NCBI GenBank assembly: GCA_964347285.1 | Contig: CAYFYE010000003.1 | Location: 3,518-67,517, forward strand | Length of the DNA: 64,000 nucleotides | Direction: 5' to 3' | Source: an uncultured Acidimicrobiia bacterium | GTDB lineage: Bacteria; Actinomycetota; Acidimicrobiia; Spongiisociales; JAOTWH01 | Part shown: positions 224-58,130 of the stretch, one piece after another | Position numbering within the stretch: the first letter of the stretch is position 1 | How the letters are laid out: each line of letters opens with the position of its first letter | Made by a program: the position numbers and the translations under genes | The notes under the pieces: generated by a model | What the model saw: only the letters and a program-made list of their open reading frames with translations | Told to the model about the DNA's origin: nothing | Database searches by the model: none

Positions 224-583
224 GTGCTCGCCGCGTTCATACTCTTCGGCTTCGGAGTCCTGGTGTACCGCACCGGCCAACAGGCCGGCGCCGGGACCCT
301 GCGGCGTGACTCCTGGTTCGCCTTTCGATCTGCCTGGGCCACGAAGAGCGACGAGGCGTGGGACCTGTCCCACCGGGTGGTTGCTCCGTACATGCGGGCG
401 GCCGGAACGATTGGAATCGTCGGGGGTATCGCCCTCGTTCCGTTCTCGCTCGGTGCGGTGGCCGAGTCCGACATCCCCACCGCCGTCATCTCGATCGTCG
501 CCGGCGGCTCACTGATCGGAGTCCTGGTGGTGGGGGCCTTCCGGGCCCGCCAGGCCGTCCAGAACCTTCCCGGAGACGACTAG
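224..583 (+). CDS. small polytopic membrane protein (SdpI/YhfL-like, hypothetical)
   Basis: GTG start immediately after the upstream stop. Hydrophobic helices (FILFGFGVLVY, IGIVGGIALVPF, ISIVAGGSLIGVLVVGAF). No similarity beyond topology. Confidence 0.45.
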   Translation: MLAAFILFGFGVLVYRTGQQAGAGTLRRDSWFAFRSAWATKSDEAWDLSHRVVAPYMRAAGTIGIVGGIALVPFSLGAVAESDIPTAVISIVAGGSLIGVLVVGAFRARQAVQNLPGDD

Positions 584-615: not shown

Positions 616-3138
616 TTACTCTTCGCGGGCGCGGAGGTAGGCGACGCCGAAGCCAGCGACTGCCACCACGGCCACCGCCGCCAGCGCCGCGATCACGATG
701 ACCGTCGTCGAGTCGCCGTCGTCGGAGGTCTCCGAAGGCGCGGTGGCCGCCTCCCGCAGCATCTCGTCCATGTGGTCGATGTGCTGGTCGTTGGCGAGGA
801 TTTCCCCGTATTTGGCGACGACGGTCTCGGTCCAGAACTCGGTGTCGGCCATGTTGCGATGGCACCCCATGCACACCCCGGTCCGCTCCATGCGTTCCCG
901 CTGGTCCTGGCTCAGCGGACCCGAGTCCGGCCAATGGGACCCGACGATCTGGAGCTGCTCCCCGTCCCGGGACACGATCTGGCTCCAGTCGATGTTCAGC
1001 TCGGGAATGGCGGGTATCTGTGGCTGGGTCTGCTCCGGCCAGACGCTGCCGTCCGGCAGCTCGAGGTCGACGAAGACGTCCTCGGGGTAGCGGCGCTGGT
1101 AGCGGCCGTCCTGAATCCCGTAGCCGAGCGCCTTGGGGTCGCTGTGACAGCTCTCACAGGTGCGGGCGATGCGGGTCGCCGAGTGGGGCTGCACCGGAGC
1201 CATGTCGATGGCGAGCTGTCCTCCCTCGGCGGTCTCACTACCCGGCGGCGTCGTGCCCACGGCGTTGTGGAGAAGGACCTCGCCGTCGGGCCCGATGACC
1301 GTCTTCACCACCTGGCAGCCCGGCATCAGGGGAGTGACCCGCCCCTCGCCGTTCAAGCCCAGGATCGGCTCCTCCCAGCGGAGGTAGGAGCGAGACTCGT
1401 TCACCTCGCCCGGTGACTCGCCGGGCGAGGTGCCCAGGATGACGCCCGGCGACGTAATCGCCTCATGGGCCTCTTCGGGGTGCTCGGCGATGGTGCGGCC
1501 ATCGGCGAAGCGGGTGTTGCCGATGGCCACCCAATCGGTGGCGGCAACACCTTCGCCGTAGTTTGCCTGGACATGGCACCCGTAGCATTGCGGCGCCCAA
1601 TCCGAGTGGCAGGCGTAGCACTCCAGCTCGTCGATGTGGGGAGCCACCGACGACATGGCGACCTCACTGGCCTCGCTCTTCCATTCGTCGGCGACCTTGA
1701 TGTTCTTCAGCACCGGGACCTCGTAGTCCCGTCCGGTGGCCGAGTGCACGATCACTGCGTTGCCGACCCGGACCACGTTGCCGAAAGGGTTGCCCCGGGC
1801 GGTCAGCAGATAGCCGTCCTCCGCGTCGTACACCGTGGCGTTGCCCTGGAAGGGAAGCAGCTCGTCGGTCACGCCGCGGGGCGTCTCCGGCAGCTCCCGG
1901 CCGAACTCCTCCTGGTAACCGATCGGCAGCTCCCAGGGGTACAGGTCGGGGGTGCCGTGACAGTCTGCGCACTCGATCTCCACCTGCGCCAGCGTGGTAC
2001 CGAAGATGTTGCCGTCGCCGTGCATGTCGGCGCTGGTGTGGCAGTCCTGGCACAGCATGCCCCCCTCGGGGTTGCCGGCACGGCTCTCCTGCTGGTGATG
2101 GAGGTCGTCCTTGATGAAGAGGTACTTCTTGGTGTGCAGGGGCGGCTGGGCCTCGCCGCTCTCGCTGAACGGCGACCCGTAAGGGAACTCCATCAGGCCC
2201 TGGTAGGTGACCCCGATGCGCTTGCCCCGGTTGTGGCACGAGACACAGGTCTCGGTGGGAATGCCGTTGTTGGCCTCCCGGGTGCCCTGGATGATGTGGG
2301 AGAGCATGTGCCCCGGCTCGTCCTTGGCAACGGTGGGATCGCCGCCCTCGTAGAAGCCCTCGTTGCTGTAGGGGATGTGGCAGGAGGAGCAGCCCATCCC
2401 CCGGTAGTCGCCCCGGGCCAGCCGTCCCTTGATGCCCACGTGGCAGCGCTGGCACTGCTGACGCTGGTAGGTGAATCCGGACAGGAACGGATCGTCCAGG
2501 ATCTCCTCGAGCGTGGGGTTGGGAAGCTGCTCGAGGGAGGAGGGGAACTGGTCGGGGAAGCGATCGATCAGGTCGGTCATGTAGGCCTTGTATCGATCCG
2601 TTCCGACCCGGGGCGTGGTCCCGTCCGGATCGTCGATGTCGTAGTTCCCCCACACCACCTTCTGGTCCTTCTGGACCGTCCAGGTGAACATGTTGCCCTG
2701 GATCTTGCCCGCCTCGCTCTGCATCAACGACCGATGGAGGTTGTAGGGGTGGTCGGGATGGCATTGCCCGCAGGTCTTGTCGGCGATCCAGAGGCTCCCG
2801 GGGTCGGGATAGAACTCCTCGGCGGCCAGGCCGGCCGGAGCCCCCTGGTGCGCTTCCTCGGCCGTGGCGGCCTGGGGGTCGCCGCCGTGACAGACCGTGC
2901 ACCCCGCCGGGTCGCCGGCCCCGGCTCCCAGGCCCTGGATTGCCGCCAGCATCCCCGAACCTTCTTCACGAATCGGTTCGATCCCGCCGTGGCACGCCAG
3001 ACACCCGTCGCCCGTGGCCTGATACAGGACGGCCGGGTGGCCCGAGGGCTCGGAGGCGGCCTGAGCCCCGGCCATGAGGAGGAGAGCGAGGAGGGCCGGT
3101 CCCACCAGCAGGCCCGCTGCCCGCAGCTCGAGCCGCAT
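616..3138 (-). CDS. multihaem (12x CxxCH) c-type cytochrome with Sec signal peptide and C-terminal transmembrane anchor
   Basis: Twelve CxxCH motifs (CLACH, CTVCH, CGQCH, CQRCH, CSSCH, CVSCH, CQDCH, CADCH, CYACH, CYGCH, CESCH, CMGCH). N-terminal MRLELRAAGLLVGPALLALLLMAGAQAA resembles a signal peptide. C-terminal VIVIAALAAVAVVAVAGFGVAYL is a TM helix followed by RAREE. Confidence 0.85.
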   Translation of the reverse strand: MRLELRAAGLLVGPALLALLLMAGAQAASEPSGHPAVLYQATGDGCLACHGGIEPIREEGSGMLAAIQGLGAGAGDPAGCTVCHGGDPQAATAEEAHQGAPAGLAAEEFYPDPGSLWIADKTCGQCHPDHPYNLHRSLMQSEAGKIQGNMFTWTVQKDQKVVWGNYDIDDPDGTTPRVGTDRYKAYMTDLIDRFPDQFPSSLEQLPNPTLEEILDDPFLSGFTYQRQQCQRCHVGIKGRLARGDYRGMGCSSCHIPYSNEGFYEGGDPTVAKDEPGHMLSHIIQGTREANNGIPTETCVSCHNRGKRIGVTYQGLMEFPYGSPFSESGEAQPPLHTKKYLFIKDDLHHQQESRAGNPEGGMLCQDCHTSADMHGDGNIFGTTLAQVEIECADCHGTPDLYPWELPIGYQEEFGRELPETPRGVTDELLPFQGNATVYDAEDGYLLTARGNPFGNVVRVGNAVIVHSATGRDYEVPVLKNIKVADEWKSEASEVAMSSVAPHIDELECYACHSDWAPQCYGCHVQANYGEGVAATDWVAIGNTRFADGRTIAEHPEEAHEAITSPGVILGTSPGESPGEVNESRSYLRWEEPILGLNGEGRVTPLMPGCQVVKTVIGPDGEVLLHNAVGTTPPGSETAEGGQLAIDMAPVQPHSATRIARTCESCHSDPKALGYGIQDGRYQRRYPEDVFVDLELPDGSVWPEQTQPQIPAIPELNIDWSQIVSRDGEQLQIVGSHWPDSGPLSQDQRERMERTGVCMGCHRNMADTEFWTETVVAKYGEILANDQHIDHMDEMLREAATAPSETSDDGDSTTVIVIAALAAVAVVAVAGFGVAYLRAREE

Positions 3139-3246
3139 CTCCCCCTCCCCTCTCGCCGCCGCCTACCGCGCGGCGTTGTGGCCTAGCGTCGCCAGGCGGA
3201 CCGGGCGTGGGTAGGGTCCAACGGCCCTTGTTCTGGAAAGTCGATC

Positions 3247-3277
3247 GGAGTGGGACTAGGGAGGCTCGTCCCACTCC
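3247..3277 (-). terminator. GC-rich hairpin (10-bp perfect stem GGAGTGGGAC / GTCCCACTCC, 11-nt loop) downstream of the glyoxalase gene and upstream of the cytochrome gene
   Basis: Perfect inverted repeat at 3247-3256 and 3268-3277. No clear U-tract, so it may be a terminator or a 5' leader structure. Confidence 0.35.
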
Positions 3278-3451
3278 CAGAGCGGACCCGGGCCAGTGCT
3301 CGATGGACCAGTCGATGCGAGACCCTTTTCATTCGGGTGAGAACCGTTGGGCCGCGGCTAGGACGGGCGCCGGCCGGGCACACCAAACGTGCTGCTGCAA
3401 CGACGCAGAGATGTTTCGGGGCCCCCTGCCCAGCGAAGACCGCGATAGCCC

Positions 3452-3895
3452 TTACAGGTCGAGCGGGCGGGGCGGCGTCAGCACCGCGGCCGGGTCGTCT
3501 CGCCAGGTCTCGGGCTGCACGTCGATGTACAGCTCGATTTCGTGCCCGTCCGGGTCGGTGATGTAGACGCTGTGGCTGACAACGTGGTCGCTTGAACCGT
3601 GGATGGTCACCCCGGCCTCACCGAGCTCCTTCACCGCCGCCCGGAGGTCGTCGTCGCTGTCGCCGATCTTCAGGCCGAAGTGGTACATGCCCACCCTCCG
3701 ACCAAGTGGGAGGGCCGAAGCATCGATGCCGACTTCGATCAACAGCAGCTCGTGGTGGGTGCGCGGCGTCGAGAAGGCGGCCAAGGGCCACTTGCTGGCG
3801 ATCTCCCGGAACCCGAGCACGTCGCGGTAGAAGCGGCGAGAGCGCTCGAGGTCTCGCACGTAGAGGACGACGTGGCCCAGTTCCTTGACCTGCAC
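3452..3895 (-). CDS. glyoxalase / bleomycin-resistance / VOC family protein
   Basis: Shows VOC hallmarks: VQVKELGHVVLYVRDLERSRRFYRDVLGF ... MYHFGLKIGD ... YITDPDGHEIELY. The GTG start at 3895 was chosen because the longer track ORF (to 4168) would run into the tmRNA gene. Confidence 0.65.
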   Translation of the reverse strand: MQVKELGHVVLYVRDLERSRRFYRDVLGFREIASKWPLAAFSTPRTHHELLLIEVGIDASALPLGRRVGMYHFGLKIGDSDDDLRAAVKELGEAGVTIHGSSDHVVSHSVYITDPDGHEIELYIDVQPETWRDDPAAVLTPPRPLDL

Positions 3896-3962
3896 GGGAT
3901 CAATAGTACGGAACCAGCACCGGCGCTGCCGGATACGGCACTCTGCCGCGACGGCAGGAATC

Positions 3963-4317
3963 GGTGGAGGTGCGGGGAGTCGAACCCCGGTCCTCTGAGG
4001 CTTCGGCGCCGGCATCTCCGAGCGCAGCCGACAGCGAGCCTTCGGGACAGTGGGACTCTGTCGGCTAGCTTCCCTCTGCCCTATCCCGAGTTGGGCTTGA
4101 CCCGCCGATCCGGGAGCCCCGGCGGGGGCATCCTGCTTTGCGACGCCCGATCCCGGCGAGGCAGGCACCCACCGAGGGGACGGGCTGCGTCAATTAGGCA
4201 GCCAGTGCGACGCTTTCGTCGGCACGTATTTGTTGTTCCGGTTGTTTCACGAGGACTCCGGAGACCTCGGCTCGCTTCCGACGCGTCGACCCTCAGAGTC
4301 GAAACCGCATCACCCCC
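3963..4317 (-). ncRNA. ssrA: tmRNA (ssrA, transfer-messenger RNA)
   Basis: 5' end is GGGGGUGAUGCGGUUUCGAC. 3' end is GGGGUUCGACUCCCCGCACCUCCACC, with a T-arm, an acceptor stem carrying the G3:U70 wobble, and CC encoded. The internal tag ORF GCC GAC GAA AGC GUC GCA CUG GCU GCC UAA gives the tag ADESVALAA. Located immediately downstream of smpB. Confidence 0.85.
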
Positions 4318-8935: not shown

Positions 8936-9716
8936 GGGCTTGGTGATGGTAGTGACGACAATGCCGATGAGCGGCGACGGGGACGTCGAAGTGGCCCTCA
9001 GTTGGTTCCCGTTGCCCGAGTCTTCGGCAGGGCCCGTCGGGATCGGGCATGCTTAGGGCTCTTTGCCCCAGGGACAGGGTCGCGCCGACGCCGCCCACCA
9101 CCACCACCATGGCCAGCCCGGTCAGCAGGGCGGGGATCGCACCGAGGCCTGTGATCGGCAACGATTCTCTCGTGAACGATTCGAAGGCCGGCCGCGGCTC
9201 CACCACCACGGTCAGGACAAGGTCGACGGTGGAACAGGCACCGAAGGGGTCGCAGGTCCGAATCGTGACTGGGAACACACCGCCGGCGGCCGGCGCTCCG
9301 CTCCACGTGCCGTCGGGATTGAGGGACAACCCGGGAGGCAGCACTCCGGCCACGACCGTCAGCACGTAGGCGTCCCCATCCGGCTCTCCGATCTGGAGTG
9401 GCGATGGGCTGTTCCCGTACACGAGCTGAATGCCGGCGACCCCCGCGGAGACGGGGGCGTCGTTCACGGGAGCCACGATCACCGTCACGGTGGCCTGGGA
9501 GCATCCGCCGGCACCATCGCACACCGTGTACGTGAACGTGTCGGTGCCGAAGAAGTCGGTCGCCGGCGAGTAGGTCAGTGTCCCGTCGGCGTTGACCATC
9601 ACGGTCCCGTGCCCGGGCTGGGTCGCCGCCGTCACCGTCAAACCATCGCCGTCGATGTCGGCGTCATTGGCCAAGGGCGCGAAGGTCACCATGGCGTCCT
9701 CGTCGACGGCTACCAA
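8883..9716 (-). CDS. Ig-like / cadherin-like repeat protein with C-terminal TM anchor, possibly N-terminally truncated or frameshifted
   Basis: Motifs LANDADIDGDGLTVTA, VNDAPV and GVLPPGLSLNPDGTWSG are typical of cadherin-like and putative Ig domains. TM helix IPALLTGLAMVVVVGGVGA. No signal peptide. The 3' end overlaps the prfB start by about 52 nt. Confidence 0.5.
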   Translation of the reverse strand: MVAVDEDAMVTFAPLANDADIDGDGLTVTAATQPGHGTVMVNADGTLTYSPATDFFGTDTFTYTVCDGAGGCSQATVTVIVAPVNDAPVSAGVAGIQLVYGNSPSPLQIGEPDGDAYVLTVVAGVLPPGLSLNPDGTWSGAPAAGGVFPVTIRTCDPFGACSTVDLVLTVVVEPRPAFESFTRESLPITGLGAIPALLTGLAMVVVVGGVGATLSLGQRALSMPDPDGPCRRLGQREPTEGHFDVPVAAHRHCRHYHHQAHVHRSPNPAEGPSLAPR

Positions 9717-12608: not shown

Positions 12609-14000
12609 TCAGAATCCGAGGCTCTGGCGCACGCTGGGCTTCTCGAGAAGGGTCGCCGGATCGATGCCGGCTCGCTCGGGGAGGAGCTGTTCCACCACGT
12701 CGCCGGGGCCGAACAGAACGGGTTGGGGATCGAGCATCAACTCCCCCTCGGCGGTCCGCACCAGCACTCCGGCCGGACGGCCCGGGTCGTGATCGATCAG
12801 GTGGGTCACCATCACGACGTCACCCGAGTCCAGCTGCAAGATCGAGCCGGCCGGATAGGCCCCCATCATGTGGATGAAGGCCCGGACGAAGTCGGGATCG
12901 TACGAGGAAGCGGCGCCGGTCAGCAGCACGTGCAGCGCCCGGTTGGGAGTCTCGGCCCGACGATAGGAACGCCGAGTCGTGATGGCATCGTATGTGTCGG
13001 CCACCGAGACCATGCGGCTGTAGAAGTGCAGACCTCCCCTGGAGGGCTGCCGGTGTCCGTTGCCGTCGTCGTGGGGATGGGTGTGAGGGTTGCCCACCTT
13101 GGGATAGCCGGTGCCGTCGAAACGAGCATGGTGCTCGAGCGCGATCACCGCCGCCACCTCTTGGCCGCGGCCCGATGCAGCCAGGATGGCTTCGGCGCCA
13201 CTCTGAGGATGAAGCTTGATCTCTTCCCACTGGGCCGCGTCGAGGCGGCCCGGGTGCTGCAGAATGCTCGCCGCCACGCCCACCTTGCCGATGTCGTGCA
13301 ACAGTGCCCCCATGCCCAGTGGGACCAGCCGCTCCTCATCGAGCCCGATCAAACGGCCCAACGCCAGGGCGTAGATCGAGGTGTTGACCGAGTGGTAGTA
13401 GGTGTACTCGTCGTGCCCCTTGACCGTGGCCAGGAGCAGCGACGCTCCCGGCTGGCTCATGGTCTGCTCTACGAGGTCGCGAACCGTGTTGGCCACCCCG
13501 CTCAACTCGAAATCCCCGTCGCCCTTCATGGCGAAGCCGATACCCCGAAGGAGATCGAGGGAGGCGGCGTAGGAGCTGCGGAGTGCCCCGATCTCCGAAT
13601 GCTCGAGGTCCGAACGCGAGAGCGGCCTCTCGTTGAGCCGTATCGAACCGGCCGCCGGCAGATCGTCGGAAAAGCCGGCGATGAACGAAGCCAGATCAGA
13701 GGCGTCGGCCGGCCGGACCAGGCTGATGAGGGTGATCGAGTCGATGCCCCGCTTCTGCAGGTCGCGCAGGATCCCGTTGAACTCGAGGGAGGCGTGGGCC
13801 AGCAACGACGGCCCGAGGTAGATGGCATCGTCCATGAGAGTCAGCACGCATTCGCCGCCCTCGGGCATGAGACCGTTGGCCGTATTGACAGCGGCGGCTA
13901 CACCCTCGCGTGCGAGCGGGTGGGTGTCCGGATAGAGGCCTTGCTGGCGCACCAGCCGTCGCAGCTGTCCGAGAAATTCACGTACGGCGCGCTCGTTCAT
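12609..14000 (-). CDS. HD-GYP domain phosphodiesterase (c-di-GMP) with an N-terminal domain of unknown function
   Basis: HD motif LLHDIGK and GYP motif HHARFDGTGYP are both intact. Overlaps the upstream HEAT gene by 4 nt. Confidence 0.8.
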   Translation of the reverse strand: MNERAVREFLGQLRRLVRQQGLYPDTHPLAREGVAAAVNTANGLMPEGGECVLTLMDDAIYLGPSLLAHASLEFNGILRDLQKRGIDSITLISLVRPADASDLASFIAGFSDDLPAAGSIRLNERPLSRSDLEHSEIGALRSSYAASLDLLRGIGFAMKGDGDFELSGVANTVRDLVEQTMSQPGASLLLATVKGHDEYTYYHSVNTSIYALALGRLIGLDEERLVPLGMGALLHDIGKVGVAASILQHPGRLDAAQWEEIKLHPQSGAEAILAASGRGQEVAAVIALEHHARFDGTGYPKVGNPHTHPHDDGNGHRQPSRGGLHFYSRMVSVADTYDAITTRRSYRRAETPNRALHVLLTGAASSYDPDFVRAFIHMMGAYPAGSILQLDSGDVVMVTHLIDHDPGRPAGVLVRTAEGELMLDPQPVLFGPGDVVEQLLPERAGIDPATLLEKPSVRQSLGF

Positions 14001-15961
14001 CCACCACCCCCGAGGGCCCTGCGGGCTGCATCGCGAATTGCTCGGGCCTGGCCGAAGATGGCGAGCCGACGCTCTGCGTACTCGCGCAGGGCATGCCGGG
14101 CCGGCTCGGTACCTCGCTCGCCGAGCACCTCGATGACGCGCAGCTTCAGCTGCAGACTGGCCTCGCCCCCGGCGAGCACCGTTGCCAGGTTGTCGTCCAC
14201 TTGGTGGGCCGCCGAGTTGACGAGCAGCGCCACCGCCGCCTGGCGAACCCGCTCATGGCGGTCGTCCAGTCCGGCAACGGCCGCTTCGATTCCCCGCTCG
14301 CTCGGCAGGGGCACCACCGATCGCAAGGCCTCGACGCGTACTCGGTGATCTTTGTGGGAAGCGGCCAGCACCTTCAGTCGGGCGGCCACGTCGCTGCGGC
14401 CGCTCCGACCCAGCACGGTGGCCAGGTTGCGAACCACGAACCACCGCTCGTCCTTCAGGTAGGGATAAACCGGAGTGGGATCGACTTGGGCGATCCCCGA
14501 CATCACGTCGATGAGCAAGCGGCGCCGGGCCGGTGTCTCCTCATCGGCCAGCAACTCGACCAGCTTGTCCAGCACAGTCGGGCCCCACGCCTCCAGGAGG
14601 GGAAGGCCCGAGCCCTCCCCCTGCTCGTCGAGCTGCATCACCAGCGCCTCGATCAGCTCGGGACTCGACATGGCGGCGAGAGCGTCGTCGACCTCATTCT
14701 GTTTGTCGGGTGGGTAGGTCGGTTCCTCGGTGACCGCCCGTAGCCATTCCTCGGCCCGCTCCAGGTCGCTCTCCCGAATGCTGCGAGACACCTTCCCCGT
14801 CCACACCCGAACCAACCGGCGAAAACGCACGTCTCGATCCTCGATGGCGAACAGGCGGCGGAGCACCTCGATTCCAATGTTGTCGTCCTCGGCCGGATCG
14901 GGAAATTCGAGGGTTAGATTCTCGAACGATTCAGCGGTCAACGACGGAGCGTCTTGCCCTCCGCCGAGCAACGCCCCGATCCGCCCGGCCACCGCCCGGC
15001 GGGCCTCTTGTACCTCCTCGGCCGACTGCAGCAGAGCCATCAGCTCTTCGGGGCGGCCCTCCTCGGTCGACACCCGGGCGTATTCGAGAAGACCGGCCCG
15101 AACCGGCTGCGGCAACGAGGTCGCCAGCCGAGCGAGGTCGTGTCCGGAGAACTGGTCCAGGAAGACCTGGTACGAAGGTTTGGACCGATGACCTACAAAC
15201 CGCTCCAGCAGCGGGACCTGGAACTCAGTGGGAAAGTAGAAATAGGCCTCGACGAAGGCGCGGACCACGTCCTCGCGGCCACCGTGGTCGCTCTCGCCGA
15301 CCAGGCCGTAGACCCGGTCGTATCGGTCGGCGAACACCTCGGTCAGCCGTTCGGAGCTGCCTTCGGCCTCGGCAATCAGCTCTGCGGCAAACGCTTCCGG
15401 ATCGGCGGCGTCCCGGAGCAGTTTGGCGACCTCGGTGTCGCGCGCCTCATTGGCGGCATCCTCCGACTCGACGAGCATCGAGCGTTGGACGACCTGAATG
15501 GCCTCGATGCCGGCGTTGAGGAGGGCGAAACGGACACCCCCGAGGGAACGGACTTCTTCGTCGTCGGTGTCCAGCACCTCGAACAGCCTCAGTAACTCGT
15601 CGTCGCGAGGCGGCGCGGCCAGCTGCAGAGCAGCGACCTCGTGCACAAACAGCCTCTTCACCAGGCGGGCCACCCCTTCCCTGGAACCCCTGACCTCTTC
15701 CTCGTCGGCTACGAAGGCACCGGTGCCGACTTCGGTGTAGAGGGGATACACGGCTTCGGTCTGCTTCAGTTCCTCCATGGCCCGTTCCCATGCCGGCTGG
15801 GCGGCCGGCTCGGGATAGAGCTGATACGTGCTCCAGGCCATGCCGAGAGCATCGACCAGCAGCGTGATCGCCTCTGGGGTGATCTCGCTCTCTCGAGCGC
15901 TCTCAGAAGCTCTCTCCTCGTGCTCATCGACCTGGGGCTCTGCATCCATGACAAGCCTCAA
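13997..15961 (-). CDS. HEAT/PBS-lyase-like repeat protein (hypothetical, 654 aa)
   Basis: C-terminal degenerate alpha-helical repeats (…DHRVRVEALRSV…, …DRHERVRQAAVALL…). No enzymatic motifs. Coupled by 4-nt overlaps to both neighbours. Confidence 0.5.
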   Translation of the reverse strand: MRLVMDAEPQVDEHEERASESARESEITPEAITLLVDALGMAWSTYQLYPEPAAQPAWERAMEELKQTEAVYPLYTEVGTGAFVADEEEVRGSREGVARLVKRLFVHEVAALQLAAPPRDDELLRLFEVLDTDDEEVRSLGGVRFALLNAGIEAIQVVQRSMLVESEDAANEARDTEVAKLLRDAADPEAFAAELIAEAEGSSERLTEVFADRYDRVYGLVGESDHGGREDVVRAFVEAYFYFPTEFQVPLLERFVGHRSKPSYQVFLDQFSGHDLARLATSLPQPVRAGLLEYARVSTEEGRPEELMALLQSAEEVQEARRAVAGRIGALLGGGQDAPSLTAESFENLTLEFPDPAEDDNIGIEVLRRLFAIEDRDVRFRRLVRVWTGKVSRSIRESDLERAEEWLRAVTEEPTYPPDKQNEVDDALAAMSSPELIEALVMQLDEQGEGSGLPLLEAWGPTVLDKLVELLADEETPARRRLLIDVMSGIAQVDPTPVYPYLKDERWFVVRNLATVLGRSGRSDVAARLKVLAASHKDHRVRVEALRSVVPLPSERGIEAAVAGLDDRHERVRQAAVALLVNSAAHQVDDNLATVLAGGEASLQLKLRVIEVLGERGTEPARHALREYAERRLAIFGQARAIRDAARRALGGGG

Positions 15962-16605
15962 AGGGAGATCAGGTTCTCTCGTACTGCGTAGAGGACCGCC
16001 TCGCTCCGGGAATGGAGACCCAGCTTGTCGAGGATGTTGCGCACGTGGTTCTTGACCGTGTTCTCAGAGATGTACAACAGCTCGCCGATCTCTTTGGACG
16101 TGTGACCCTGAGCCACCATCTCCAGCACCTCGATCTCTCGTCCGGTGAGCACCGGCTTGCGGGACGCGAACAGCTCTCGATGCCGCAGAAGCTGACGGGC
16201 GGCGTCGAAGAGCTTTCCGCACATCAACGGCGTCACCGCCGCTCCGCCTTCGGCTATGTCGCTGATGGCCTTGGCCAGCTCTTCGAAGGAGGCGTCTTTG
16301 TTCAGATAGCCGCGCGCCCCGGCCTTGATGCCCTCGAGCAGATCCTCCTCCGACTCGCTGGAAGTGAGTAGCACGACGTGCGTGTCGGGCGATACTGCGT
16401 AGAGCTTCTCCACAACCTCCAGACCGGAGAGGCCGGGCATGAGGATGTCCAGCACCACCACCTCAGGCTGGAGGTATTCGGCTTCGGCGACCGCTCCCTC
16501 GGCGTGCTCGGCCTGGCCCACAACGTGGAAGCCGGCCTCGTTCAGAGCCGCGGCCAACCCGGCCCGGAACAGGGCCACGTCATCGACGACCAGAACACTG
16601 GTCAT
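15958..16605 (-). CDS. NarL/FixJ (LuxR-type HTH) response regulator
   Basis: Receiver domain has DD, D (VLDILMPG), T and K. C-terminal GerE/LuxR HTH: TGREIEVLEMVAQGHTSKEIGELLYISENTVKNHVRNILDKLG. The ATG overlaps the hpf stop (ATGA). Confidence 0.9.
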   Translation of the reverse strand: MTSVLVVDDVALFRAGLAAALNEAGFHVVGQAEHAEGAVAEAEYLQPEVVVLDILMPGLSGLEVVEKLYAVSPDTHVVLLTSSESEEDLLEGIKAGARGYLNKDASFEELAKAISDIAEGGAAVTPLMCGKLFDAARQLLRHRELFASRKPVLTGREIEVLEMVAQGHTSKEIGELLYISENTVKNHVRNILDKLGLHSRSEAVLYAVRENLISL

Positions 16606-17171
16606 GTGGGCTCTATCAAACCCAATGACCCATCGCGACGCCGATACAGAACTCCGTAGCGCTCAGTCTCCCCGTTCAGGAAGAAGAAGAAACTGTGGCC
16701 GAGCAACTCCATCTGCAGAGCGGCCTCCTCAGGCATCATGGGTTTCATCGCGAACTGCTTCACGCGGACAATCCCCAATTCGTCCTCTACAGATGGATCT
16801 TCGGCCACCCCTGCGGAGGCATTGAGACGTTTGTGATCGTCGGTTCGGGTGCGCTGGATGAGGCGCTGTTTGAGCTGGCGCAGGCTTCGCTCGAACTTCT
16901 CCGAAGCCTGGTCGAGAGCGGTCCGCTCTTCATGCGCAGCGGCCTCGACGCGCACCAGCTGTCCGGCCACTCGTGTCGTGATCTCCACCCGGTAGCGAGC
17001 ATCGGCAATGCGCGGGTTTTGCTGCTCGATGAACTCGACGTCGACCGCCGAGTCGTCGCCAAAGATCCGACCGGCGTTTCCCAGCTTGCGCTCAGCGAGG
17101 GCCCGGAGATCCTCGCCGACCTGCATGCGCTTGCCGTGCACCCGTACGTCCACCGGTTGCTCCTTTCCCAC
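16602..17171 (-). CDS. hpf: ribosome hibernation promoting factor (long HPF, RaiA/YfiA family)
   Basis: Sigma-54-modulation-like N-terminal domain, plus a C-terminal dimerisation domain (VRVKQFAMKPMMPEEAALQMELLGHSFFFFLNGETERYGVLYRRRDGSLGLIEP). Confidence 0.85.
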   Translation of the reverse strand: MGKEQPVDVRVHGKRMQVGEDLRALAERKLGNAGRIFGDDSAVDVEFIEQQNPRIADARYRVEITTRVAGQLVRVEAAAHEERTALDQASEKFERSLRQLKQRLIQRTRTDDHKRLNASAGVAEDPSVEDELGIVRVKQFAMKPMMPEEAALQMELLGHSFFFFLNGETERYGVLYRRRDGSLGLIEPT

Positions 17172-26843: not shown

Positions 26844-27581
26844 ATGGCTCGCTCCCCGGAGCCGCCCCGCATCTCGGTGGTGATACCCATCCACAACGAG
26901 GCGGCCTTTCTCCTCGATGCCCTCGAGCGCCTCTTCGTCGAGTTGGAGGAGGTGGCCGCCGACGTAGACGTGTGCTTGGCGGAGAACGGTTCCACCGACG
27001 GCACCCCGGCCGTGGCCGCCGCGCTGGCCGACCGGCGCAGCGACGTGTCGTGGCTGCACCTCGATCTGGCCGACTACGGAGCCGCCATGCGGGCCGGCTT
27101 CATGGCCGCCCGGGGTGACTGGATCGTCAATTTCGACATCGACTACTTCTCCGGCGAGTTTCTCGAGGCCGTGCTCGCCTCTCCGGCCGACGTCGTCCTC
27201 GCCTCGAAGCGGGCCCCGAGCGCCACCGACCTTCGCTCGCCGGTGAGGCGCCTGGCCACCCGGGTGTTCAACCTGCTTCTCAGGATCATCTTCCGATCCC
27301 GGGTGAGCGACACCCATGGCATGAAAGGAGTGCGGCGGGAGGTGGTCGCCGTCATCGGTCCCCGGGTCCGTTCGACCAAGGACCTCTTCGATACCGAGCT
27401 GGTCATTCGGGCCGAGCGGGCCGGGTACCGGATCGCCGAGGTCCCGGCCCGGGTGGTCGAGCAACGGCAAGCCAAGTCGCGTCTCGTGTCCCGGGTGCCC
27501 CGCACGCTGGCCGGGTTGTTGCGATTGCGCTGGTGGCTGTGGCGTGAGGAGAAACGCCCCCCGGCGGAGGAAACCAGCTAG
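26844..27581 (+). CDS. GT2 family glycosyltransferase (polyprenyl-phosphate sugar synthase-like)
   Basis: N-terminal ISVVIPIHNEAAF, DxD-like region, 245 aa. Resembles Ppm1/DPM1-type enzymes. Confidence 0.7.
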   Translation: MARSPEPPRISVVIPIHNEAAFLLDALERLFVELEEVAADVDVCLAENGSTDGTPAVAAALADRRSDVSWLHLDLADYGAAMRAGFMAARGDWIVNFDIDYFSGEFLEAVLASPADVVLASKRAPSATDLRSPVRRLATRVFNLLLRIIFRSRVSDTHGMKGVRREVVAVIGPRVRSTKDLFDTELVIRAERAGYRIAEVPARVVEQRQAKSRLVSRVPRTLAGLLRLRWWLWREEKRPPAEETS

Positions 27582-29869
27582 GCGGCGAAGCGGCCCGGTC
27601 GCCGGAAACGCCGGTACAGCACCGGGTAGATGACCAGTAGCGCGATGCCCACACCGGTGAGGGCCATCCCCAGTATCTCGTCCCAGGTCCGCTCAAATAC
27701 GATCTCGACCTCCTCCTCGGTAGGGATCACCACCATCAACGAAGGGGCCGCCCGGTACGGGCCCTCGGCGCCGCGGGCCGTCCAATTGGGAAAGTGGGAC
27801 ACCTTGACGAGGTGGGGCACGCCCACCGCGGTTGTGCGGAACGTGATCCGGGATTCCTCCATCACGACGTCGCTCACGGTCCCCGCCGCTGCGATGGGGC
27901 GTCCCAGTCCGACGAGTGAGGCTTCGGCATTGGCGGTGCGGGGCCAGTCGTCGGGCCCGTCGGCCACCAACCAGTGGTCGAGCTCGTCCACCCGCTCGTA
28001 CCACGCCAGGGAGGCCCGGTAGAAGTCGGAGCCCTCGTACACGGCGGGCACGGTGGTAGCCACCTCGACGAGCGAGCTCTCCGGCAGCTCGAACACCGTC
28101 CACGGCTGGGATTCGGCCACGACCGGCAGTCCTCGGTCGACTGCTTCGGCGCGGGCCTCCTCGGTGAAGCTGATGTAGTAGCGAATGTTGTAGACCGGAA
28201 GGTGCTTGAGGGCCCGGTCGAAGTCGAGGTTGTGGTACCTGGCCGGCTCGATCGCGTCCGAGCCCACCGGGTTGGACGGTGCCTGCGACACCTCGGCGGC
28301 ATTGAGGAAGTGGAAAGGTGTCGTGATCGACGACTCGAAATACAGCCCCTCCATCGAGGCGTGGGTTCCCTCGGTCCAATAGGGAAAGAGCATCAGCGAC
28401 ATCGGGGTGCCGTAGCGGCCCATGTCCTTGTTGGCTTCCCAGAGAATGCGGCCCTCGGGCAGGTCGTCGACCGTCTCCATCAGTGCCTTGTATTCAAGCC
28501 AGGGTTCCTTGCCCTCGTACCCGGTGTAGTTCCACCGCACCCATCCGACTATCTCGGCGATACCCAGCAGTCCAGCGGCCAGGAAGAAGAAGGAGGTCAG
28601 TCCGACACCGGCGGCCAGAATCGCCTGGCGGCCGGACAGTCGTCGCAGCCAGGCGAGGACGACCACCCCCACTGCGGCGGCGATGAACAGGTAGGCGCCG
28701 GCCCACGGCGTGGACAGGTGGTCGTCCCGTACCAGCAGCACCGCCACGACCGCGTGCAGGCCCATCCAGGCGGCGCCCACCACGGTCAGGTAAACCCGGC
28801 CGGAGCGGCGAGCCAGAGTACTCACTGCCAGGCCGACGGCCACTCCGGCAAAGAGGTACATCGTGTAGTACCAGAAGGGCAGCAATCGGGCGTTGTAGAG
28901 CTTGGTGACGCCCAGGACCGGCAGCAACAGGTAGCCGGCCACCGGCAGGATGGCCAACCAGGTGGCCGCCACCACGTCCCGACCCCGCCACCATGACCAG
29001 CCCAGGCCGCCGAGACCGAGGACCACAATGGGGAGGAACTCACCCGGGAAGATCTTGTCGAAGCCCTTGACCGGGCTCCATCCCATGTCCGTCGTGAACG
29101 AGAATATCCGAGTCATCAGAGGCGCCGCCCAAAACCCGGCGATGGCAAACCCGAGCAGCCACGAACCGATCACTGTGGCCGGGCCCCGCCTCCTCAGTAG
29201 AAGGGGCAGCGAGACGATCACCACGACGAGGGCCACGATGATGTGGGAAAGGGCGGTGAGCGCCAGGAGCAGCCCGGCGAGCGGAGAGAAACCCCGACCG
29301 GCCCGAGTCTCCTTTATCACCTTCCCCAGGTACAGCATCCCCAGTGCAAAGGCCCACGAGAAAGTGAACTCACCGGCCATCGTCGCCTTCACGTTGGCGC
29401 CGAAAATGTTGTGGCTCTCCATGAACACATAGGTGCCGCCGGCCACTCCGGCCACGGTGGCCACCGCCCGGGTGAAGCCCATCGATCGGGCCAGGTAGTA
29501 GGAGGCAAGCGGCAGGGTGACGATGCCCGCCGAAGCCACCAGTTTGAAGGCCACCCCGTAAGGAAGCACGAAGTCCAGCAGCACGATGGTCAGGATGGGG
29601 AGCGGGAAGTAGAAATAGAGGGCCGGGAATCCGGCATACCAGTCGTTACTCCAGCCGAGCACTCTCCCCTGAGGCAGCAGGGTGTCTCGAACGAATGCCG
29701 GCAGGAAGACGTGCGCCCCCATATCGCCACCGGTAGGAGTGTTGGCGGCCAACATGAGGTCGGGCCGCATCACGATGAACAGCGCGACCACCGCCGTACC
29801 GACGGTCACGACCGCCACCGCTTTCGACGGAGATGGGGACCGCCGGAGCGCGGCGAACGACGCGGCCAT
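27578..29869 (-). CDS. large polytopic membrane protein with C-terminal extracytoplasmic domain (putative GT-C-type glycosyltransferase)
   Basis: 763 aa. About 13 N-terminal TM helices, then a roughly 330-aa soluble domain. It is convergent with the GT2 gene and the two share a palindromic CTAG double stop. The family assignment is inferred from architecture only. Confidence 0.45.
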   Translation of the reverse strand: MAASFAALRRSPSPSKAVAVVTVGTAVVALFIVMRPDLMLAANTPTGGDMGAHVFLPAFVRDTLLPQGRVLGWSNDWYAGFPALYFYFPLPILTIVLLDFVLPYGVAFKLVASAGIVTLPLASYYLARSMGFTRAVATVAGVAGGTYVFMESHNIFGANVKATMAGEFTFSWAFALGMLYLGKVIKETRAGRGFSPLAGLLLALTALSHIIVALVVVIVSLPLLLRRRGPATVIGSWLLGFAIAGFWAAPLMTRIFSFTTDMGWSPVKGFDKIFPGEFLPIVVLGLGGLGWSWWRGRDVVAATWLAILPVAGYLLLPVLGVTKLYNARLLPFWYYTMYLFAGVAVGLAVSTLARRSGRVYLTVVGAAWMGLHAVVAVLLVRDDHLSTPWAGAYLFIAAAVGVVVLAWLRRLSGRQAILAAGVGLTSFFFLAAGLLGIAEIVGWVRWNYTGYEGKEPWLEYKALMETVDDLPEGRILWEANKDMGRYGTPMSLMLFPYWTEGTHASMEGLYFESSITTPFHFLNAAEVSQAPSNPVGSDAIEPARYHNLDFDRALKHLPVYNIRYYISFTEEARAEAVDRGLPVVAESQPWTVFELPESSLVEVATTVPAVYEGSDFYRASLAWYERVDELDHWLVADGPDDWPRTANAEASLVGLGRPIAAAGTVSDVVMEESRITFRTTAVGVPHLVKVSHFPNWTARGAEGPYRAAPSLMVVIPTEEEVEIVFERTWDEILGMALTGVGIALLVIYPVLYRRFRRPGRFAA

Positions 29870-29905
29870 GGCAGGGGAGGGTAGCGGTGGAGGCCGGCTA
29901 GCTTA

Positions 29906-30783: not shown

Positions 30784-32103
30784 TCACCGCTCCAGAGGGG
30801 TACCCACCGAGAAGGCGGCCCCCTCCGAGCGTTGGATGCTCCACGCCGCTGTGAATGGCTCCAATGAGTCGGCCCGTAGCCCGACGACCTCGTCGCCTTC
30901 GACGATGAACTGGCGTACCGTGCCCGCCGGCAGCGCCACCTTGTCGGTTCGGGCCGGCCCGCTTCCCAGCGACTGCAGAGTGACGGTGGCGTCCACGGCA
31001 CCGGTGTTGAGGAGCCAAACGGCCCGCACTCCCTCACGGCCGGTTCCCGCACCCGGGAGAAGCCAACCCCGGGACGGCTTCGACAGCCCCGGTGTGGCCG
31101 CCAGCGCTCCCCCGCCCCGACTCACCGCTGCGGCCGCTATCGGTGACCCGGCTCGCAACCGGAGACCCAGTGCCCCGTCGGCGAGGTCCCCCACCGGAAT
31201 CCTGGCCGGCTCGTTCGGAGCCAGAGTCACCACCCGGGCGGCCGGTACCGCTCCATCGGGGGTGTGAACATCGATCTCCACGTCGACGGTGTCCTTGCCC
31301 GGGTTGACGACCGCCACCGCCGGCTCCATTGTCCCGGTGCGCATCACCGGAAACTCCCACACTGTGCTCAGGCCGGTGCCCGGCCAAAAGGCCTGGTCGT
31401 TGCCGTCGTCGAGGGCGAACACCGGAAGGACGATTCCCTCCTCGGTCGTGATGCTGACGGCTATCGCCTCCCGCAAGCGAAGCTCGTTCTCCAGGGCCAG
31501 ATCGACCCAATTGCGAGAAGGCACCGAGATCCCGGTCAGGCTGGGCAGGGGCTCCGGCCCGAACTCGCTGACCGCCGTGACCGTCGCCTTGGCCAACTCG
31601 GGAAATGGGTTGAAGAGCCGCAGTGTGAGCGACTCGCCCTGGCGCGTGGAACCGCCCGGCACGTGCCACACCCTGGGACCGGAGGCCACACACAGGTCGC
31701 CGGACACTTCCCCGTCCGATTCGACGAGGACCCCGGCGGCTGAGGGCGTCTCGGCGAATTCGACAAACCCGGGCACGCTGCCCCGCAGAGCCACGTCCGA
31801 AACGAGCAGGGCACTCGCTCCCGGTCCGGCGACGTCGAGGGTGAACTGGTCAGGCTCGGCACCCGGCTCGGGATTGGGGAACGTGAACCGGGCTGGGGTG
31901 GACTCGAGGGCCATCGTTGCGAAGGAGGTCTCGAACTCGAAGCTGGCCTCGACCCAGGAGCAATACCAAACACCGGCGGCGGCCGAGACTGCCGAGCTCT
32001 CGACGGGACGCACCGGAGCGGCAGCCGGGGCCGGAGGCTCTTGCATCAAGAAAGCTGCGGTGGCGAGGCCTCCGGCAACCAGCAACCAGCCCACTCGCTT
32101 CAC
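30784..32103 (-). CDS. hypothetical secreted/membrane-anchored protein (DUF5719-like), translationally coupled to upstream GT2-membrane fusion
   Basis: GTG start (VKRVGWLLVAGGLATAAFL, signal/anchor) overlaps the upstream stop (GTGA). About 440 aa. No catalytic motifs. Confidence 0.5.
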   Translation of the reverse strand: MKRVGWLLVAGGLATAAFLMQEPPAPAAAPVRPVESSAVSAAAGVWYCSWVEASFEFETSFATMALESTPARFTFPNPEPGAEPDQFTLDVAGPGASALLVSDVALRGSVPGFVEFAETPSAAGVLVESDGEVSGDLCVASGPRVWHVPGGSTRQGESLTLRLFNPFPELAKATVTAVSEFGPEPLPSLTGISVPSRNWVDLALENELRLREAIAVSITTEEGIVLPVFALDDGNDQAFWPGTGLSTVWEFPVMRTGTMEPAVAVVNPGKDTVDVEIDVHTPDGAVPAARVVTLAPNEPARIPVGDLADGALGLRLRAGSPIAAAAVSRGGGALAATPGLSKPSRGWLLPGAGTGREGVRAVWLLNTGAVDATVTLQSLGSGPARTDKVALPAGTVRQFIVEGDEVVGLRADSLEPFTAAWSIQRSEGAAFSVGTPLER

Positions 32104-34910: not shown

Positions 34911-34950
34911 TTTGGGGCGCCGAACAGCGCATGGCAAAGGAGAACCGGCG

Positions 34951-35859
34951 GTGACCCTCCTGTCCGGGGGCGTCGGGGGAGCTCGTTTGGCTCGGGGCTT
35001 GGCGGCGGCGCTCCCCGAACGCCGGCTGTCGATCGTCGTGAATGTGGGCGACGACGACGAGATCTATGGCGTGCACGTGTCCGCCGACCTCGACACTGTG
35101 CTGTACACGCTGGCCGGCCTCGAAGGGCCCCAGGGCTGGGGCCGGGCCGGAGACACGTTCAACGTGATGGCTGCACTCGAAGACCTCGGGGTGGATGCCC
35201 GCTTTCGTATCGGCGACCGCGACCTGGCCACCAACCTGGCCCGTACCGCGGCTCTGCGTCGCGGCGACTCGCTCACCGACGTGACCGGCCGGCTTGCCGA
35301 TGCCTTCGGGCTGACGGCCCGCCTCCTGCCGGCCAGCAACGACAAGCTGCGTACCACGGTCCGGACCGCCGCGGGGGATTGGCTGAGCTTCCAGGAGTAC
35401 TTCGTCATGCGCGGCCACGCAGACGAGGTGGTCGAGGTCCGCTTCGAGGGTGCCGAGGCGGCCCGCCCCGCCCCGGGGGTCATCGAAGCGTTGGCCGGGG
35501 CGGATCTGGTCGTGGTCGCCCCTTCCAACCCTCCACTTTCGATCTGGCCGATTCTGGCCGTGCCGGGAATTCGAGAGGCGGTCGCCGCTGCCGCTCGGGT
35601 CGTGGCCGTTTCGCCGCTGTTCGGCGGAAAGCCCCTCAAAGGTCCGGCCGACCGGGTGATGGCCTCCCTCCGACTCCCGGAAGGCAACTCCGGCGTGGCG
35701 GCGGCCTACGAAGGGCTCCTCGACGTCTTGGTGGTCGACCTCGGCGACGCGATGGACGCCGACCTGCCGGGCGACGTCGAGGTGATAGCCGCCGACACCC
35801 GTATCGCCGACCCGGACGCGGCCCGACGCTTCGCCGCTTGGTTGCTGGAGGCGGCATGA
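34951..35859 (+). CDS. cofD: 2-phospho-L-lactate transferase (F420 biosynthesis, CofD/FbiA)
   Basis: GTG start with AAGGAG 7 nt upstream. Conserved LSGGVGGARL and CofD family blocks. Confidence 0.8.
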   Translation: MTLLSGGVGGARLARGLAAALPERRLSIVVNVGDDDEIYGVHVSADLDTVLYTLAGLEGPQGWGRAGDTFNVMAALEDLGVDARFRIGDRDLATNLARTAALRRGDSLTDVTGRLADAFGLTARLLPASNDKLRTTVRTAAGDWLSFQEYFVMRGHADEVVEVRFEGAEAARPAPGVIEALAGADLVVVAPSNPPLSIWPILAVPGIREAVAAAARVVAVSPLFGGKPLKGPADRVMASLRLPEGNSGVAAAYEGLLDVLVVDLGDAMDADLPGDVEVIAADTRIADPDAARRFAAWLLEAA

Positions 35860-57041: not shown

Positions 57042-58130
57042 TCACTCTACGACGGCGATGTCACGGTCCGACCGGTTGAGCCGATCGAGGCCGTCTCGGC
57101 CCACAACAACGATGTCCTCGATGCGCATTCCCCACTTGCCGGGGAGGTAGATGCCGGGCTCGATCGAAAACGCCATACCCGGAGTGAGGGGCAGATCGTT
57201 CCCCTCGACCAGGTAGGGGTTCTCGTGGACCTCGAGCCCTATGCCGTGGCCGGTGCGGTGAACGAAGTAGTCGCCCAGGCCGGCCCCGGCGATCACCGTG
57301 CGAGCAGCCCGGTCCACCTCCTCGGCGGGCGTGCCCGGTGCAACGGCGTCCACCGCCGCCGCCTGGGCCCTTCTCAGGACTTGGTAGGCGTCGGCGAAGT
57401 CGGGGGGCGGCTCCCCCACGTGGAAGGTACGCGTGGTGTCGGAGTGGTAGCCACCCAGCCGGCCACCGAAGTCGATCACGATGCCGTCGCCGGGGCCGAT
57501 GACGCGATCGGCCGGCTCGTGATGGGGCGAAGCAGCGTTGGGCCCGGAAGCCACGATGCTGAAACCGGCGGAGTCGTGGCCTTCGGCAACGGTCAGTGCG
57601 CCGATTTCGGTGGCGAGGTCGCGTTCCGACCGGCCCGAAAGTCGCATGGCGGAGAGGCGGGCGACCACCCGGTCCGCAGCCTCCCCGGCCCGGCGCAGGA
57701 GCTCGACCTCATCGGAATCCTTGAGCAGACGGAGCGACCCCGTCACCGGGGCCGCCGGTACGAATTGAGCGGCGGGAAGGCGCTCCTGGAGGCCGAGGAG
57801 AGAGGCCGCCCAGGTCTGATCGCTGACGGCCAGCCGGGCCCGGCTCCCCACCAGTCCGGCGACCAGATCGAGCGGATTGTCGGTCTCCTCCCAGGCCTCG
57901 ATCGAGAATTCAGGACGCCCCACCACCCGAGGCGCCTCGAGGCGGGGCACCACCAGGACCGGATCTCCATCGACCGGAATCACGCCCATCGTCAGCCGCT
58001 CCAGAGGCATTGCCTCGTACCCGGTGAAGTACAGAAGGTCGGCGCCGGCCGACAGCAACAGCACCTCGATGCTCCGATCGAGCATCGAGGCCCGGACCCG
58101 ATCGAGTCGCCCCGGGTAGTCGAAGCTCAT
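57042..58130 (-). CDS. M24 family metallopeptidase (Xaa-Pro aminopeptidase-like)
   Basis: Pita-bread fold metal ligands (D...D...HGIGLEVHE...E...E). ATG at 58130 chosen. Confidence 0.75.
   Translation of the reverse strand: MSFDYPGRLDRVRASMLDRSIEVLLLSAGADLLYFTGYEAMPLERLTMGVIPVDGDPVLVVPRLEAPRVVGRPEFSIEAWEETDNPLDLVAGLVGSRARLAVSDQTWAASLLGLQERLPAAQFVPAAPVTGSLRLLKDSDEVELLRRAGEAADRVVARLSAMRLSGRSERDLATEIGALTVAEGHDSAGFSIVASGPNAASPHHEPADRVIGPGDGIVIDFGGRLGGYHSDTTRTFHVGEPPPDFADAYQVLRRAQAAAVDAVAPGTPAEEVDRAARTVIAGAGLGDYFVHRTGHGIGLEVHENPYLVEGNDLPLTPGMAFSIEPGIYLPGKWGMRIEDIVVVGRDGLDRLNRSDRDIAVVE

Follow-up and report, generated by a model that had tools for sequence, protein, structure and literature searches.

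A 64,000-nucleotide stretch of DNA from an uncultured Acidimicrobiia bacterium (contig CAYFYE010000003.1; this whole stretch is called the window below) carries on its minus strand, at positions 616 to 3138, a gene for a large c-type cytochrome with twelve haem-binding motifs. Judging by its sequence, the protein belongs to a widespread and uncharacterised family with tight conservation, of which it is the version found in Acidimicrobiia, bacteria with a single membrane. The sequences point to a protein that is exported, tethered to the membrane and provided with sites for twelve covalently bound haems, kept under strong purifying selection and spread across phyla. We favour, with a probability of about 0.45, the reading that it is an extracytoplasmic multihaem oxidoreductase with a soluble substrate.

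The gene is real and intact. In agreement with the initial annotation, which was made from the letters of the window, the open reading frame (ORF) encodes 840 amino acids with exactly 12 CxxCH motifs, starting at residues 46, 80, 123, 229, 250, 298, 363, 390, 507, 518, 661 and 756. The remaining six-frame translations of the window, all frames pooled, contain 4 such motifs (about 3e-5 per codon), so that only about 0.03 would be expected by chance in 840 codons. GC content by codon position is 0.68/0.47/0.90, and the third-position value (GC3) falls inside the range of the other window ORFs (0.74-0.90). No frameshift was found in the ORF; with this coding bias and an unbroken frame, the motifs lie neither in non-coding sequence nor in a frameshifted pseudogene, as had been considered. 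The total number of cysteines is 25, and the sole one outside CxxCH motifs is Cys608. The protein is identical to database entry P0271, and a sister contig (L001, 99.4-99.6% DNA identity) has the same gene with only 2 amino-acid changes. Features of the gene are as follows.

616..3138, minus strand: coding sequence of the 840-amino-acid twelve-haem c-type cytochrome precursor (stop codon 616-618; 12 CxxCH; GC3 0.90)
3141..3150, minus strand: Shine-Dalgarno region GGGGAGGGGG, GGAGG lying 5 nt upstream of the ATG at 3138
3058..3138, minus strand: Sec-type signal peptide, residues 1-27, predicted cleavage between AQA and AS (sequence reading; hydrophobic segment at residues 3-29)
2758..3003, minus strand: haem motifs 1-3 (residues 46, 80, 123), N-terminal c7/c3-like trihaem module; Pfam matches are confined to residues 38-131
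1957..2454, minus strand: haem motifs 4-8 (residues 229, 250, 298, 363, 390), N-terminal part of the stretch matching ExtM (residues 217-542)
1573..1620, minus strand: haem motifs 9 and 10 (C507YACH, six residues, C518YGCH); of these two, haem 10 shows the coupling with Cys608
1315..1317, minus strand: codon of the lone Cys608 (PLMPGCQVV), putative axial ligand of haem 10
1144..1158, minus strand: haem motif 11 (C661ESCH), a CxxCH motif
859..873, minus strand: haem motif 12 (C756MGCH), lost jointly with His786 among distant relatives
634..705, minus strand: C-terminal transmembrane anchor, residues ~812-835 (hydropathy 2.77), the only hydrophobic segment besides the signal

The bulk of the cytochrome is predicted to lie outside the membrane, to which it would be tethered by its C-terminus. 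The N-terminus, MRLELRAAGLLVGPALLALLLMAGAQA followed by AS, has a basic n-region (MRLELR), a hydrophobic core and an AXA site; reading of this N-terminus revealed neither a lipobox cysteine nor a twin-arginine motif. A comparable hydrophobic stretch is found at the start of all homologues compared. The anchor is preceded by an acidic Ser/Thr/Asp linker and followed by a predicted cytoplasmic tail, RAREE (619-633). With respect to C-terminal sorting signals (LPXTG, PEP-CTERM, GlyGly-CTERM and others), no LPXTG-like motif was present, and none of the sorting-domain models of NCBIfam matched at an E of 1 or below. The Sec signal and the single C-terminal transmembrane helix with its RAREE tail, both claimed earlier, are thus supported by hydropathy and sequence reading; the export prediction itself is based on hydropathy and sequence rules.

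Presence of the anchor follows the type of cell envelope. A C-terminal hydrophobic helix occurs in 11 of 12 loci of the Acidimicrobiia/Chloroflexota type versus 1 of 74 loci of phyla with two membranes (diderms). The family protein is accordingly predicted to be a soluble periplasmic protein where the cell has two membranes and a tethered one where it has a single membrane, which is the simplest explanation of the anchor in the window protein. The sole diderm-labelled homologue with a C-terminal hydrophobic tail (...GGCAVTGGLAAATLALSGLFVVAARRREDEEE) is P0045, encoded at locus L015 in a metagenome-assembled genome (MAG) labelled "uncultured Enterobacterales". Its tail is unlike the anchors of Acidimicrobiia and Chloroflexota; a role as sorting signal or mis-binning of the MAG could account for it.

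A cytochrome family found across phyla

Large multihaem cytochromes had been regarded as only sporadic in actinobacteria, which made the gene look like an oddity. This impression did not survive database searches. More than 2394 clusters at 90% identity match the window cytochrome, the best 120 being all full-length with 57-76% identity. In a scan of one genome per species, at least 589 GTDB species were found to encode a family member (52-72% identity). These species span at least eight phyla, and members from other phyla are 53-62% identical to the window protein over about 790 residues. Carriers belong to Acidimicrobiia, Chloroflexota, Gemmatimonadota, Planctomycetota, Alpha-, Gamma- and Deltaproteobacteria, Campylobacterota, Bacteroidota and Deinococcota; there are one or more records each for Halarcobacter, a Lewinellaceae, Oceanithermus and Dadabacteria. 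By titles of the records, sulfur oxidisers (Ca. Thiosymbion, Sedimenticola, Beggiatoa-like bacteria, Chromatiaceae, Halothiobacillaceae) and sulfate reducers are numerous among the carriers, and many carriers originate from permeable sands and sediments where redox conditions fluctuate. Cultured carriers include the Rhodobacteraceae Aliiruegeria lutimaris DSM 25294, Tropicimonas isoalkanivorans DSM 19548 and Aliiroseovarius subalbicans.

An alignment of 47 sequences contains about 220 invariant columns, including all 25 cysteines and the 12 histidines of the haem motifs. In some members motif 3 reads CX4CH, giving 11 CxxCH plus one CX4CH. Clustering at 50% identity reduces the core family to few representatives and adds about 1300 more distant relatives with 31-47% identity. 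In databases the members are named "cytochrome C", "cytochrome c3 family protein" or "hypothetical protein"; no dedicated model of the family was found in Pfam or NCBIfam. A large part of sediment redox chemistry is the work of multihaem cytochromes, most families of which are known only from Geobacter and Shewanella. The present family stands out, since it occurs in at least 589 species with 53-62% identity between phyla and probably has a cysteine-ligated haem, and has no curated model, structure or known function. This function is experimentally reachable through the cultured carriers.

Neighbouring genes were compared among family loci. In 40 of the 79 loci with enough flanking sequence, a gene for a secreted tetratricopeptide repeat (TPR) protein of about 260-300 amino acids lies downstream, often overlapping the cytochrome gene and often followed in turn by a gene for a secreted 200-amino-acid protein with no known domain. 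Tested as a haem-lyase factor of the NrfG type, the TPR partner matched generic TPR models only. At some 15-18 alphaproteobacterial loci, genes for a Crp/Fnr regulator and for a CcmF/NrfE-family lyase, CcmH and CcmI are found upstream in divergent orientation, and a gene for a small Rap1a-like periplasmic protein is located 3' of the cytochrome gene. Examples from Rhodobacteraceae, in which the regulator gene stands between the cytochrome gene and the divergent lyase, CcmH and CcmI genes, are listed here.

L057, 1127-5657: CcmF/NrfE-family lyase, CcmH and CcmI, with Crp/Fnr regulator between
L075, 2600-5392: the same arrangement
L045, 1043-5253: the same arrangement

Two-component systems were detected in about 16 loci and an Rrf2 regulator at one locus (two near-identical contigs). 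Only 12 of 86 loci have a Porin_5 gene close to the cytochrome gene. The two loci of gammaproteobacterial sulfur oxidisers that were examined consist of a three-gene cassette amid housekeeping genes. Lone siting, with neither a dedicated quinol oxidase nor a porin, is a property of the family. The initial annotation was therefore correct that the window gene sits alone, no maturation or quinol-oxidising partner being present in the 64 kb; as the family norm, however, this is no peculiarity.

Haem 10, Cys608 and the proposed role of the protein

The only cysteine outside the haem motifs, Cys608, is invariant in 47 of 47 family members. Distant relatives without haem motif 10 (C518YGCH replaced by YYGYK, HYGTH, EYGKH etc.) are also without Cys608. 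Among 191 sequences covering both sites, 165 have both, 18 neither, 5 the motif only and 3 the cysteine only, i.e. presence or absence is concordant in 183. Of all His, Met, Cys, Lys and Tyr positions, Cys608 is the one best correlated with haem 10 (phi 0.75 vs 0.54 for the next); Gly607 and Arg583 likewise co-vary with this haem. The same logic of common loss works elsewhere in the protein, as His786 disappears together with haem 12 in distant relatives and ligand-like His/Met swaps are seen at positions 139 and 373. From the joint loss of Cys608 and motif 10 we infer a His/Cys-ligated haem 10, in which Cys608 would be the distal ligand or would at least line the haem pocket.

The following mode of action is proposed. 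The cytochrome is predicted to be exported across the membrane by Sec and to be held by the C-terminal helix on the outer face of the cytoplasmic membrane; it would receive its haems from the general cytochrome c maturation system of the host. Electrons would hop through closely packed six-coordinate haems, mostly His/His and some His/Met, and this chain would link generic respiratory carriers (at the level of cytochrome c or the bc complex) to haem 10. The latter, with the Cys608 thiolate as its probable distal ligand, would be the reactive site. The substrate would be a soluble redox compound accessible from the periplasm; our leading guess is a sulfur compound such as thiosulfate or polysulfide, because His/Cys haems typify sulfur enzymes and many carriers take part in sulfur cycling. 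So understood, the cytochrome would be no dedicated wire to minerals, and its way of working would be like that of other multihaem cytochromes of the periplasm or the outside of the membrane. Haem ligation, direction of electron flow and substrate are all deduced indirectly.

Several observations lead us to rank an enzyme-like role above a mineral conduit and a pure relay or store. Versions of the protein in double-membrane bacteria are periplasmic and usually porin-less. Conservation of the family is far above what would be expected of surface conduits. TPR/Ccm-type partners are known for multihaem enzymes, e.g. NrfA with NrfEFG, and the partners found here, together with local redox regulators, resemble this setting. 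Finally, His/Cys haems are characteristic of sulfur-converting cytochromes (TsdA, SoxA, DsrJ).

Other observations weigh against an oxidoreductase. A quick neighbour-joining/parsimony test indicates only about two independent events of joint loss of Cys608 and haem 10, so the raw Fisher p of 5e-18 overstates this evidence. In five relatives haem 10 is retained and residue 608 is Gly. Conserved His and Met are sufficient for twelve six-coordinate haems and leave no obviously open catalytic site, and the AlphaFold model is of moderate quality (predicted local distance difference test, pLDDT, 63; predicted template modelling score, pTM, 0.66). On two independent metagenome contigs, a homologue with 72-75% identity is located between cooS (Prismane/CODH) and acsB in an operon for carbon monoxide dehydrogenase/acetyl-CoA synthase (CODH/ACS) of the Wood-Ljungdahl pathway; this setting would suit an electron outlet no less than an enzyme. 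No publication describing the family was found in the literature on ExtM, GSU2935, dodecahaem, Acidimicrobiia or anchored cytochromes. The named relative ExtM is a 12-haem periplasmic cytochrome thought to be an electron-transfer subunit (PMC5877670), and kinship with it, as judged from profile similarity, keeps alive the reading as an electron outlet. The CODH/ACS-embedded homologues are:

L004, 8001-10577: P0004, with C-terminal anchor
L089, 7001-9442: P0010

A CODH/ACS operon is an unusual site for an exported cytochrome.

A more ambitious form of the oxidoreductase proposal holds that the family is a new class of multihaem enzyme, in which a His/Cys haem 10 centre fed by an eleven-haem wire performs multi-electron conversion of dissolved sulfur or nitrogen species. 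We consider this form doubtful. If it were true, a new enzyme class in hundreds of marine-sediment bacteria across phyla would amount to an unrecognised step in sediment element cycling, and in single-membrane bacteria such as the Acidimicrobiia of the window this enzyme would be tethered to the membrane.

Alternatively, the protein could be a conduit for extracellular electron transfer, exchanging electrons at the outer face, in either direction, with insoluble Fe(III)/Mn(IV), humics or partner cells. This is unlikely in our view. It would suit a single-membrane cell that exposes twelve haems at its outer face and an N-terminal module resembling c7/c3 and MtrC domain II/IV. The only named relative, ExtM, belongs to a Geobacter gene cluster connected with acceptors that are extracellular or insoluble, close relatives are placed inside CODH/ACS operons as if they were electron outlets, and a Porin_5 gene adjoins the cytochrome gene in 12 loci. 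On the other hand, most diderm homologues are predicted to be soluble in the periplasm with no outer-membrane conduit nearby, and solubility and the usual lack of a porin argue against a dedicated mineral-reducing conduit. It is not obvious how one anchored protein would span the cell wall, and there are no companion cytochromes in the 64 kb. Whole-family models reach about 15 bits against cutoffs near 200 (OmcA/MtrC, TIGR03507: 15 bits, E 0.006, cutoff 209; DmsE/MtrA, TIGR03508: 14.6 bits, cutoff 192), and sequence and fold searches brought up no similarity to the structures of OcwA, OmcS or MtrC. Identity of 53-62% across phyla is unusual for surface conduits, judging by the divergence of MtrC/OmcA, and is enzyme-like rather than wire-like. 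Of the connection with extracellular electron transfer drawn in the initial annotation, the tethered cytochrome on the outer face is thus retained, but the link itself is weak, given the rarity of porins and failure of the two models.

A comparably small chance is given to a pure electron relay or store ("capacitor") which converts no substrate and, under fluctuating oxygen, buffers electrons passing between respiratory complexes; in that case Cys608 would be structural or tune the potential of its haem. Conserved His, Met and Cys suffice for twelve six-coordinate haems, no catalytic partner genes were found in the window or at the two gammaproteobacterial loci, and fluctuating redox conditions prevail in the sands and sediments named in many carrier records. 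ExtM-type proteins are, moreover, regarded as electron carriers (PMC5877670). Nevertheless, a relay or store hardly explains strong conservation of many non-ligand loop residues, nor dedicated TPR/Ccm partners and local regulators (Crp/Fnr, Rrf2, two-component systems).

That the gene is non-functional in this host, a decaying or horizontally acquired remnant with neither maturation system nor partners, is highly improbable: the TPR partner of about half of the other loci is indeed missing and the surroundings are housekeeping genes, but the 840-residue frame is intact with all 25 cysteines and 12 motif histidines, GC3 (0.90) is in the range of other window ORFs (0.74-0.90), the Shine-Dalgarno site is good, and the sister contig (99.4-99.6% DNA identity) differs by only 2 amino acids. 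Since the bc complex of actinobacteria includes the dihaem QcrC, which these bacteria mature, the host is expected to possess a cytochrome c maturation system, and this also counts against the explanation.

Locus, host and leader of the window gene

The cytochrome gene is flanked by an SdpI-like gene and a VOC gene, as stated in the initial annotation. The boundary of the latter had to be corrected: a gene for transfer-messenger RNA (tmRNA) overlaps the 5' part of the mechanically called ORF 3452..4168, so the true VOC gene comprises only 3452-3895.

224-583, plus strand: SdpI-family gene, downstream of the cytochrome gene and convergent with it
3452-3895, minus strand: glyoxalase/VOC gene, upstream of the cytochrome gene on the same strand
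3962-4317, minus strand: tmRNA gene between smpB and the VOC gene (Rfam, 142 bits; ARAGORN tag peptide ADESVALAA)
3247..3277, minus strand: leader hairpin GGAGTGGGAC...GTCCCACTCC, 10 perfect base pairs, extendable to 13 at 92%

Further upstream, on the strand of the cytochrome gene, are smpB, a gene for an M23 peptidase, ftsX, ftsE, prfB and secA. The rest of the window is of housekeeping nature, including carboxylases, methylmalonyl-CoA mutase, class A penicillin-binding protein, transketolase and 2-oxoacid dehydrogenase E2/E3. Neither ccs/ccm/res genes nor a quinol dehydrogenase nor a second multihaem ORF were found in the 64 kb, and no maturation genes are present in the 10 kb that the sister contig L001 adds beyond the window. 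Searches of the window and L001 for the family partners (TPR protein, 200-amino-acid protein, Rap1a-like protein) gave no real matches. The actinobacterial origin of the DNA, assumed from the beginning, is confirmed by the window SecA, whose best named relatives are all from Acidimicrobiia/Actinomycetota (70-77% identity). No close sequenced relative of the host lineage was found in the collections searched.

The leader between the cytochrome and VOC genes is 313 nt long (3139-3451). It had attracted attention due to its length and a perfect 10-bp hairpin; the hairpin is real, but significance was not detectable. Folding of the whole leader is no better than that of shuffled sequences (z = -0.33), Rfam search of the leader gave no match, and neither a sigma-70-like promoter nor a canonical terminator was found in it. 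A regulatory RNA was rejected on these grounds. In L001, the only close relative, the hairpin region is covered by a run of N (9185-9222, corresponding to window 3242-3324). The hairpin is possibly the terminator of the upstream VOC gene, and the leader is regarded as unremarkable.

Some other genes deserve mention. On the minus strand, 58127-60091 is one stop-free frame with an LplA-B_cat domain (residues 125-315) and a radical-SAM domain (residues 424-583), which may represent a LipB-LipA fusion; it adjoins the 2-oxoacid dehydrogenase E2/E3 genes. Two minus-strand ORFs, 27578-29902 (774 amino acids) and 32100-35063 (987 amino acids), have good coding bias and no Pfam match at E up to 1e-5. 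Beside secA, 12609-16662 (minus strand) encodes in series an HD-domain protein, a HEAT-repeat protein of about 690 amino acids and a LuxR-type response regulator; this row may be a signalling module. On L001, in the part lying beyond window position 1, an apparent fusion of 640 amino acids (12670-14592) combines an N-terminal Rieske-type [2Fe-2S] motif (CPH...CPWH) with the body of a thiamine-diphosphate enzyme (GDGGF), apparently in an operon with a small lipoprotein gene and the SdpI gene. L001 also has a gene for type II NADH dehydrogenase about 4.7 kb from the cytochrome gene.

Relation to known cytochromes

Comparison with Pfam multihaem families, suggested in the initial annotation, yielded generic matches to Cytochrome_C7 (42 bits), Cytochrom_c3_2 (39.5 bits) and the MtrC/MtrF II-IV domain (38.5 bits), all within residues 38-131, and no family-specific model. 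The only strong curated match is NCBIfam NF040943, ExtM (E 2e-65, 221 bits, residues 217-542), which is below the equivalog cutoff of 800 bits. The window protein thus appears to be a distant relative of ExtM (GSU2935), encoded in the extHIJKLMNOPQS cluster of Geobacter sulfurreducens. Both have 12 haems, but the ExtM profile is about 600 residues long versus 840 residues in the window protein. No cluster of the ext type surrounds the window gene, where the neighbours are SecA, PrfB, FtsEX, M23 peptidase, SmpB, tmRNA, VOC and SdpI; porin ExtI, rhodanese ExtH, selenoprotein ExtKL and Rieske/cytochrome b ExtOP have no counterparts in the window.

With MtrC, OmcA and MtrF the window protein shares the nature of a large multihaem protein outside the energy-conserving membrane, a short PF22113 match (38.5 bits, residues 38-97) and, in its predicted model, beta-rich stretches between haem modules. 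It differs from them in having 12 haems instead of 10, in not being a lipoprotein and in the absence of MtrAB-type partners. OcwA of Thermincola and OmhA of Carboxydothermus are likewise multihaem cytochromes exposed outside the membrane of a single-membrane bacterium. These operate with several companion cytochromes, of which none occur in the 64 kb around the window gene.

Searches of PDB sequences, by phmmer with the single sequence as well as with a family profile, gave nothing below E 0.1. A PDB fold search with the AlphaFold model, weakened by its pLDDT of 63, found no match, MtrC, OcwA and OmcS included. With the same limit on the fold search, no similarity to solved OcwA, OmcS/E/Z, NrfA, HAO, OTR or MccA was detectable by sequence, profile or fold. 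To TsdA, SoxA and DsrJ, which have 1-3 haems each and no detectable sequence similarity to the window protein, the sole likeness is the putative cysteine-thiolate distal haem ligand; this is a lead and not a sign of membership.

UetJ of "Ca. Tenderia electrophaga" is a possible relative. It is an undecahaem cytochrome with 11 CxxCH and no other domains, its gene adjoins cytochrome maturation genes and a TPR/NrfG-like gene, and the uet cluster further includes NHL-repeat proteins, trihaem c7 proteins and a 28-strand porin (bioRxiv 10.1101/2022.05.06.490989). A count of 11 CxxCH, plus one CX4CH, is likewise seen in part of the present family; among the family-locus neighbours examined, NHL-repeat proteins, trihaem c7 proteins and a 28-strand porin of the uet type were not seen.

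The closest affinity is therefore to the unnamed family itself. The window protein is collinear with its members over the full length at 53-76% identity, falls in the same length class and has all 12 motifs and the lone cysteine in PGCQ. It differs from the rest by the C-terminal anchor typical of Acidimicrobiia/Chloroflexota members, and its gene is without the adjacent TPR partner gene present at about half of the loci. By these sequence features it appears to be an ordinary member of the family, adapted to a single-membrane cell by means of its C-terminal anchor.

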